From NCBI RefSeq assembly GCF_003334315.1, contig NZ_QOWR01000022.1: a stretch of DNA of 64,000 bases; one strand, given 5' to 3'. Numbering within the stretch: the stretch's first letter is position 1; every line of letters starts with the position of its first letter. The notes below the pieces were generated by a model. That model did not search any database. It saw only the letters and a list, made by a program, of their open reading frames with translations, and was not told where the DNA came from. A program made the position numbers and the translations under genes. This document shows, piece after piece, positions 51,493 through 52,623 of the stretch. Source of the stretch: Escherichia coli. GTDB taxonomy: Bacteria; Pseudomonadota; Gammaproteobacteria; Enterobacterales; Enterobacteriaceae.

Positions 51493-52623
51493 TTAGAACT
51501 GGTAAACCAGACCCAGAGCTACGATGTTATCAGTGTTGATGCCAGCGTCACGAGTGAACTGGTTGTCGTCCAGCAGGTTGATTTTGTAGTCAACGTAGGT
51601 GGACATGTTTTTGTTGAAGTAGTAGGTAGCACCAACATCAACATATTTCAGGATATCTTCGTCGTCGTAGTTACGACCATTGATGACACCCAGGTTTTTA
51701 CCTTTAGACTGCAGGTAAGCCAGGGACGGACGCAGACCAAAGTCGAACTGGTACTGAGCAACAGCTTCGAAGTTCTGTGCTTTGTTCGCCCAACCCAGGG
51801 AACCTACGCGAGTTGCGTTGTAGGTCTGGGTGTACTGAGCAGCCAGGTAGATGTTGTTAGCGTCGTATTTCAGACCACCAGTGTAGGTTTCAGCACGGTC
51901 GCCAGTACCGATGTAGTTACGAACTACACCATTGCTGGTGTAGCTACCATTTTGATCATCAGTACGTTTGGAGCTGGAAACTGCAGCACCGATACCGAAG
52001 CCTTCGTAATCATAAGTGATAGATCCGCCGACACCGTCGCCATTCTGACGCAGAACACCACGACCATTGTTGGTCATGCCTTCGCCGCTTACGCTACCGT
52101 TTTTGCCCTGGTACTGAACAGCAAAGTTCAGACCGTCAACCAGACCGAAGAAGTCGGTGTTACGGTAGGTCGCGAAGCCGTTACCACGCTGCTGCATGAA
52201 GTTGTCAGAACCGTAGGTGTCGCCACCGAATTCTGGCAGTACGTCGGTCCAGGAAGTTACATCGTAAACAACGCCGTAGTTACGACCGTAGTCGAAAGAA
52301 CCTACATCCTGGAATTTCAGACCTGCGAATGCCACACGGGTCCAGGAGTTTTCTTTGTTGTCTTCAGAGGTATTGCCCTGGATCTGATATTCCCACTGGC
52401 CGTAACCGGTCAGCTGGTCAGTAACCTGAGTTTCGCCTTTGAAACCAAGACGTACATAGGTCTGGTCGCCGTCTTCTGACTTGTTGTCAGAGAAATAGTG
52501 CAGGCCGTCTACTTTACCGTACAGATCTAATTTGTTGCCGTCTTTGTTGTAAACTTCAGCAGCGTTTGCTGCGCCTGCTACCAGCAGAGCTGGGACCAGG
52601 AGGGACAGTACTTTAACTTTCAT
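51493..52623 (-). CDS. ompC: Outer membrane porin OmpC (variant allele, 376 aa)
   Basis: [37 protein letters not shown]... ending ...[11 protein letters not shown]. Conserved barrel strands with divergent, longer predicted surface loops relative to the 367-aa K-12 protein as I recall it. Confidence 0.93.

Follow-up and report, generated by a model that had tools for sequence, protein, structure and literature searches.

A 376-residue OmpC allele of a catalogued class, with a probably recombinant set of surface loops in a K-12-like Escherichia coli background

OmpC is a cation-selective general diffusion channel with an OmpR/EnvZ-dependent promoter. It forms homotrimers, as well as heterotrimers with OmpF, which are held together by contacts between the strands and by a latch in which a Glu residue of loop L2 reaches an Arg residue in L3 of the neighbouring subunit. 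The latch residue of OmpC was identified as Glu66 in L2 (PMC5056734). The loops of this porin have been catalogued in several studies. In a set of over 220 E. coli OmpC proteins, Beck et al. found 33 variants of L4, 30 of L5, and 13 of L7, combined in many ways (PMC5056734), and Chen et al. described a mosaic evolution of ompC, with 15 major OmpC groups based on hypervariable regions in L1, L2, L4, L5, and L7 (bioRxiv 10.1101/2021.09.21.461324). Brödel et al. (2024) counted 76 OmpC variants in 525 genomes, tested 23 variants with lambda gpJ chimeras, and found that delivery by these chimeras depends on the variant (PMC11338833).

Here, we analyzed the ompC gene present in a 64-kb stretch of E. 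coli DNA (the whole stretch is hereafter called the window). The gene occupies 51493..52623 (minus strand) and is intact, with an open reading frame that runs from ATG to stop and includes 376 codons plus the stop codon. A sequence-only reading had described it as a longer and divergent OmpC allele with altered surface loops; the length was borne out, the protein having nine residues more than that of K-12, and all five sequence segments quoted in that reading are present in the translation. The family concerned is that of the NCBIfam model NF007841 ("porin OmpC") and of Pfam PF00267 (Porin_1). The NCBIfam model matched the whole protein with 752 bits (cut-off 484), whereas the scores of the OmpF model (477 bits, cut-off 583) and of the PhoE model (455 bits, cut-off 599) were both under their cut-offs. 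Furthermore, "porin OmpC" is the annotation found in RefSeq genomes with 99.9% identity to the window gene. The signal peptide (residues 1-21, 52561..52623, minus strand) was placed by the alignment to K-12 and by the solved mature chains, which start at query residue 22. As read from the sequence, the Sec signal peptide and the C-terminal aromatic β-signal (...ALGLVYQF, ending in Phe) do not differ from those of K-12 OmpC.

The gene order at the locus is the canonical ada-apbE(ftp)-ompC-micF-rcsD, with ada and apbE downstream of ompC, and micF and rcsD upstream of it and divergent. The 20 kb around ompC match several complete E. coli chromosomes at ~100%, and the window is collinear with positions ~2,258,900-2,324,100 of K-12 MG1655, with 99.6-99.75% identity outside ompC. 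It is known that E. coli carries porin paralogues (indeed, the ompC query gave a median of two megablast matches per genome), and the gene might be another porin, either a paralogue or one acquired horizontally (OmpN, NmpC, PhoE-like, or prophage-borne), or even a chimera of the assembly. We consider this extremely improbable. The gene lies precisely in the interval delimited by apbE and micF/rcsD, its flanks do not differ from K-12, and its product passes the OmpC model and stays below the OmpF and PhoE cut-offs. Moreover, the same protein was found at this locus in 44 or more independent draft assemblies, which include one contig equal to the window along 7,131 bp, and 299 complete chromosomes have the gene at ≥99% identity. 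The readings of this gene as a pseudogene or as a paralogue were rejected on these grounds. The gene is, with high confidence, a functional chromosomal ompC of a phylogroup-A-like, K-12-related E. coli, which combines the channel and the regulation of K-12 with recombined loop cassettes and belongs to a catalogued class.

A 348-aa open reading frame on the opposite strand (51433..52479, plus strand) was discarded as spurious: nothing backs it, it sits wholly inside the highly expressed, codon-biased ompC, and it is probably a side effect of that codon bias.

The 5' untranslated and promoter/OmpR-box region of ompC (52624..52956, minus strand) shows no difference from K-12. The micF small RNA gene, which is divergent from ompC (52957..53050, plus strand; Rfam RF00033, 114 bits; terminator at 53022-53044), is also identical, as is a hairpin followed by a T-run that resembles an intrinsic terminator downstream of ompC (51455..51474, minus strand). 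The only intergenic differences from K-12 around ompC fall within 53091-53179; these are single-base changes at positions 53091, 53136, 53177, and 53179, between micF and the start of rcsD. A scan with the sigma-70 consensus gave three sites, with 3.3 in shuffled sequences; this is no excess, and the scan was not used. The regulatory argument is based instead on the identity of the promoter DNA to that of K-12: since the region 52624-52956 is the same, the known promoter elements must be present. Thus, we infer that the expression of the window ompC would be normally regulated, as in K-12.

To place the differences from K-12 on the fold, we used an AlphaFold model obtained from an alignment of 71 diverse porins, and the loops were mapped from this model with DSSP, using the precursor numbering of the window protein. 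The model has a pLDDT of 91.8, a pTM of 0.87, and 16 transmembrane strands. Compared by Foldseek with solved OmpC structures (2XE1, 2J1N, and 9WCB), it gave TM-scores of 0.96-0.99 and rmsd values of 0.9-1.6 Å. Another AlphaFold model, based on 36 close OmpC alleles, had a pLDDT of 32.5 and was discarded as meaningless.

In the global alignment, the window protein (376 aa) and K-12 OmpC (367 aa) share 343 identities, with 20 substitutions and 17 gap columns. On the predicted model, 34 of the 37 differing columns are located in the external loops L1, L2, L4, L5, and L7, and the remaining three are the conservative strand changes M57V, G213A, and I215V. No differing column was found in L3, L6, L8, or the periplasmic turns, and the contrast between the external loops and the rest of the protein is strong (Fisher's exact test, p = 1.5e-16). 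The loop boundaries of the AlphaFold map agree with the structure-based ones in the S1 Fig of Beck et al. (PMC5056734). The sequence-only reading had placed the differences in regions expected to be extracellular loops, and had named a location in the transmembrane strands, or identity to K-12, as observations that would speak against it; both were checked, and the sequence is not K-12 identical, with differences that fall in loops by the model and by the published boundaries alike. Its statement that the termini are conserved was also confirmed, and extends to the nucleotide level: codons 1-47 and the last 58 codons are the same as in K-12.

The insertions and deletions relative to K-12 are one residue gained in L2, four lost in L4, eight gained in L5, and four gained in L7; the net gain of nine explains the 376 versus 367 aa. 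All the loops described here are encoded on the minus strand. L1 (residues 46-55, 52459..52488), as delimited by both the model and the S1 Fig of Beck et al., carries D49S and V50E, and M57V lies directly past it. In the latching loop L2 (residues 83-92, 52348..52377), the K-12 segment GNSAE-NENN is replaced by a segment of 10 residues, one more than in K-12. This insertion adjoins the latch Glu, which is kept (mature Glu66 of K-12 corresponds to window residue 87). The constriction, or eyelet, loop L3 (residues 117-145, 52189..52275) is conserved throughout. L4 (residues 173-196, 52036..52107) lacks the K-12 residues GFTS and carries N177S, P178V, V to M at 183, D189G, and A190V, the last of which is a minority form. 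In L5 (residues 220-242, 51898..51966), a loop predicted to form a β-hairpin, 12 residues replace the K-12 TAA-Y, together with A223D and N240T; G213A and I215V are found just ahead of this loop. L7 (residues 310-321, 51661..51696) has gained GVIN and carries G318N. Neither L6 (residues 269-280) nor L8 (residues 350-366) differs from K-12. With L3 identical to K-12 and the strand changes limited to M57V, G213A, and I215V, the protein would be a normally conducting osmoporin, and we expect solute permeation to be unchanged with respect to K-12 OmpC.

Across 15 kb of DNA, 116 of the 149 columns that differ from K-12 are in ompC, and all of them fall within codons 48-318 (51670..52482, minus strand), a diverged tract that we interpret as the recombined segment. 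Conversely, there are no differences in apbE (1,056 bp), in the 3' intergenic region, or in rcsD (2,673 bp). When the window was divided into 1-kb bins, the two bins of ompC were the top outliers, with 57 and 46 differences, and the next most diverged bin, which falls in a repeat array, had 24. Codons 1-47 and 319-376 show zero synonymous divergence. Within the diverged tract, dS is 0.81 for the variable loops and 0.12 for the strands and turns that separate them. Furthermore, the loop variants of 36 alleles are distributed as cassettes that occur in varied combinations; for instance, L1 types 1 and 3 are each found with L7 types 1 and 3. High silent divergence restricted to the middle of the gene, between identical flanks, argues for import by recombination rather than for local divergence by point mutation. 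On this sequence evidence, the window ompC is the product of an allele swap by intragenic homologous recombination in a K-12-like background.

The loops could also have diverged in place, without any recombination, if diversifying selection had acted on point mutations and small indels. The clustering of the differences in surface loops is what one would expect in that case, and the preprint by Chen et al. cites earlier genome scans that listed ompC among positively selected genes (bioRxiv 10.1101/2021.09.21.461324). However, the silent changes are just as clustered as the others, with the loop and strand dS values given above set against zero at the gene ends and in apbE and rcsD, and identical loop sequences reappear in other alleles in other combinations. 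The same mosaic pattern was reported by Beck et al. (PMC5056734) and Chen et al. (bioRxiv 10.1101/2021.09.21.461324). Lastly, the pairwise dN/dS against K-12 is 0.27 in the loops, where dS is near-saturated, and 0.06 in the strands and turns between them. We thus regard divergence in place as very unlikely and retain recombination. We do not claim positive selection, as a loop dN/dS below 1 gives no direct evidence of it.

Some other features of the window were observed outside ompC. Kilobases 1-3 (the psuK/fruA end) are above the window-average divergence, with 22, 18, and 13 differences per kb, and the first 204 bases of the window have no megablast alignment to K-12. An array at 44471-44910, between eco and mqo, is made up of 3.9 tandem copies of a 113-bp unit with 96% matches and has a REP/BIME-like look; in K-12, it apparently contains about two more units (226 bp). 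The adhesin-like autotransporter gene yejO (27660..30251, minus strand) is intact in the window, with an open reading frame of 863 aa, whereas in K-12 MG1655 IS5K has split it into a pseudogene; the window stays collinear with K-12 through the empty IS5 site. Two direct repeats of ~90 nt, 91% alike, are located between rcsB and rcsC (56708-56797 and 56822-56911), and K-12 has both.

We then considered how common the allele is. A search of 5,426 complete E. coli genomes gave 5,431 records with a match, and 299 of these (~5.5%) carry a gene with ≥99% nucleotide identity to the window ompC. The exact 81-nt L5 cassette is present in 328 of the 5,426 genomes, and close variants of it in 98 more. 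The L4 type of the window, at ≥90% nucleotide identity, occurs in ~2,730 of these genomes, i.e., about half, and at this loop the less common form is that of K-12. The L7 of the window is the commonest form in the 36-allele sample (13 of 36, versus 11 for the K-12 form). The description of the allele as divergent therefore stands with respect to K-12 only: an L4 type carried by about half of the complete genomes and the most frequent L7 are not divergent in general terms. The protein cluster of the window OmpC has 1,281 member sequences, and the form with Ala190 (WP_000865600.1, UniProt C6K7N7) is found on at least 1000 contigs.

The allele can also be located within the published catalogues. 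The window L5 has the sequence that Beck et al. (2016; PMC5056734) list as class b7 in their S2 Table, with WP_000865547.1 of ATCC 35150 as the example. The L4 with Ala190 is shown for A54H, EC93, UTI89, and A33H in the S1 Fig of the same work (PMC5056734); as a contiguous string it was not found in the supplements, possibly because of table formatting, and neither was the identifier WP_000865600. The L4 with Val190 (…NNGRGVLRQ) was not found in the searched supplementary text of PMC5056734, nor were the L2 and L5 strings of the window in that of Brödel et al. 2024 (PMC11338833). The loop set, the allele class, and the mosaic, recombination-driven variation are thus already published and catalogued, and the gene is a real and ordinary one. 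Neither the origin by intragenic recombination nor the membership of a common, catalogued class had been recognized in the sequence-only reading.

The only element of the window ompC for which we found no published record is A190V. Codon 190 (52054..52056, minus strand) is GTT (Val) in the window and GCT (Ala) in the common form, owing to a C>T change at nucleotide 569 of the coding sequence (window position 52055). No other nucleotide separates the window gene from the common allele (1130 of 1131 positions are identical), and A190V is thus also the single non-synonymous difference. A site-centred 99-nt probe for V190 had no exact match in the 5,426 complete genomes. The exact V190 protein was recovered at the same locus in the draft assemblies mentioned above (at least 44) and is present on 43 contigs, versus at least 1000 for the A190 form; together with contig L007 (GCA_023096745.1), which matches the window without a difference along 7,131 bp, this indicates that V190 is not an error. 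Comparing 7.1-kb loci around ompC, we found V190 on two apbE-ada haplotypes: a K-12-like one (window, L005, and L007, with 0-1 differences) and a second one (L003, L004, and L006), with 46-55 differences in 3 kb with respect to the window. A synonymous change at codon 332 is linked to the divergent haplotype of L003, L004, and L006. This linkage and the existence of two haplotypes point to recombination with a breakpoint close to the 3' end of ompC.

These observations raise the question of whether A190V is a meaningful feature, that is, a recent change allowing escape from a phage or from CDI through the receptor, which is spreading and may be moving from lineage to lineage through the intragenic recombination that built the allele. 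Such a scenario would be coherent with its being the sole non-synonymous change, with its location in L4, a known determinant for both phages and CdiA, and with its presence in numerous draft assemblies and on two haplotypes. We nonetheless find it unlikely. The replacement of Ala with Val is conservative and has no known phenotype, the variant is absent from the complete genomes and rare among contigs, and a C>T transition may recur by chance. Moreover, ordinary recombination beside an older neutral variant explains the two haplotypes equally well.

As regards the ligands of the surface loops, the sequence-only reading had proposed that the allele alters susceptibility to phages and colicins, as well as serological properties. 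The part on phages and antibodies is reasonable in the light of the literature on other alleles, in which the OmpC loops determine which phage receptor-binding proteins and CdiA toxins recognize the porin (PMC5056734, PMC11338833, PMC5221442, PMC12892980); that on colicins was not supported. The best-documented consequence of L4 and L5 variation, contact-dependent inhibition (CDI), was absent from that reading. Recognition by CdiA-EC536 is decided by L4 and L5 of OmpC, and OmpC-A54H, although expressed, is not a receptor for CdiA-EC536 and confers resistance to CDI-EC536 (PMC5056734). Judging from this literature, we infer that the window allele would be resistant to CDI-EC536 as well.

Phage T4 is unable to use the OmpC of O157 (PMC5221442, Washizaki et al. 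2016), and unpublished data cited in the same paper indicate that T4 no longer adsorbs when a Phe in L4 of OmpC is substituted. The only Phe in L4 of K-12 is within GFTS, the segment missing from the window allele; the T4 determinant that K-12 carries in L4 has therefore probably been lost. For phage PP01, gp38 contacts Ser225/Pro226 in L5 and GVIN in L7 of O157 OmpC, and GVIN is needed for adsorption (PMC12892980). A mixed picture is predicted for PP01-like phages on the window allele, in which GVIN is present in L7 and the L5 contact site is replaced by a longer loop.

OmpC is not known as a primary colicin receptor. For ColE9, it is a secondary and poorer translocator than OmpF, which was explained by the narrower and more electronegative eyelet of OmpC (PMC8561637). 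As the eyelet loop L3 is identical to that of K-12, no effect of the allele on colicin threading is expected, and threading should be unchanged with respect to K-12 OmpC.

Taken together, these data support the following picture. Homologous recombination between codons 48 and 318 would have created this combination of cassettes. The product would be a trimeric, 16-stranded general diffusion porin in which the barrel, the constriction loop, the periplasmic turns, and the regulation are those of K-12 OmpC, and in which the outer face (L1, L2, L4, L5, and L7) presents another combination of pre-existing loop cassettes. The resulting class would be the WP_000865600.1/UniProt C6K7N7 type with L5 of class b7, and its surface would be altered for ligands that dock on the loops, namely phage tail fibres, class II CdiA toxins, and antibodies. 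As a discovery, the locus is of little importance. It illustrates in textbook fashion how recombination shuffles the surface loops of a porin, with the channel and its regulation staying fixed. Its only practical use lies in strain annotation, for the choice of phages or of engineered particles whose delivery depends on docking to OmpC.

Among the known OmpC proteins compared, the CFT073 type (2XE1) shares the fold of the window protein (TM-score 0.96) and an L7 of equal length, but it has a long L4 with the insertion NDPDFTGH, a short L5 (RTWDQNNTGLIGTGD), VVAG in L7 where the window has VING, and differences in L8. The OmpC of O157:H7 EDL933 (9WCB), solved in complex with a chimeric lambda gpJ tail fibre, is the closest solved chain (723 bits, TM-score 0.99, rmsd 0.9 Å). 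It shares the short L4 type and L7 with the window, while it differs in having a short L5 of the SPLYIGNGD type, L1 and L2 of the DDKSV and SAENENN types, and, in L4, E in place of the G189 of the window. K-12 OmpC (2J1N) corresponds to the window in fold, signal peptide, barrel core, L3, L6, L8, turns, promoter, and micF, whereas its L1 and L2 have other sequences, its L4 is four residues longer (GFTS), and its L5 and L7 are eight and four residues shorter, respectively. OmpC-A54H, from a uropathogenic isolate (355-aa mature protein; PMC5056734), has the same L1, L2, and L7 cassettes as the window, the same L4 except for residue 190, and an L5 of the same long family (class b6, versus b7 in the window); overall, the mature proteins differ only at A versus V190, I versus T229, and V versus L301 (the window residue being given second). 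Lastly, the common 376-aa OmpC (WP_000865600.1; C6K7N7) has the same length, locus, and loops L1-L8 as the window protein and is identical to it at 375 of 376 residues, the exception being Ala190 in place of Val190.
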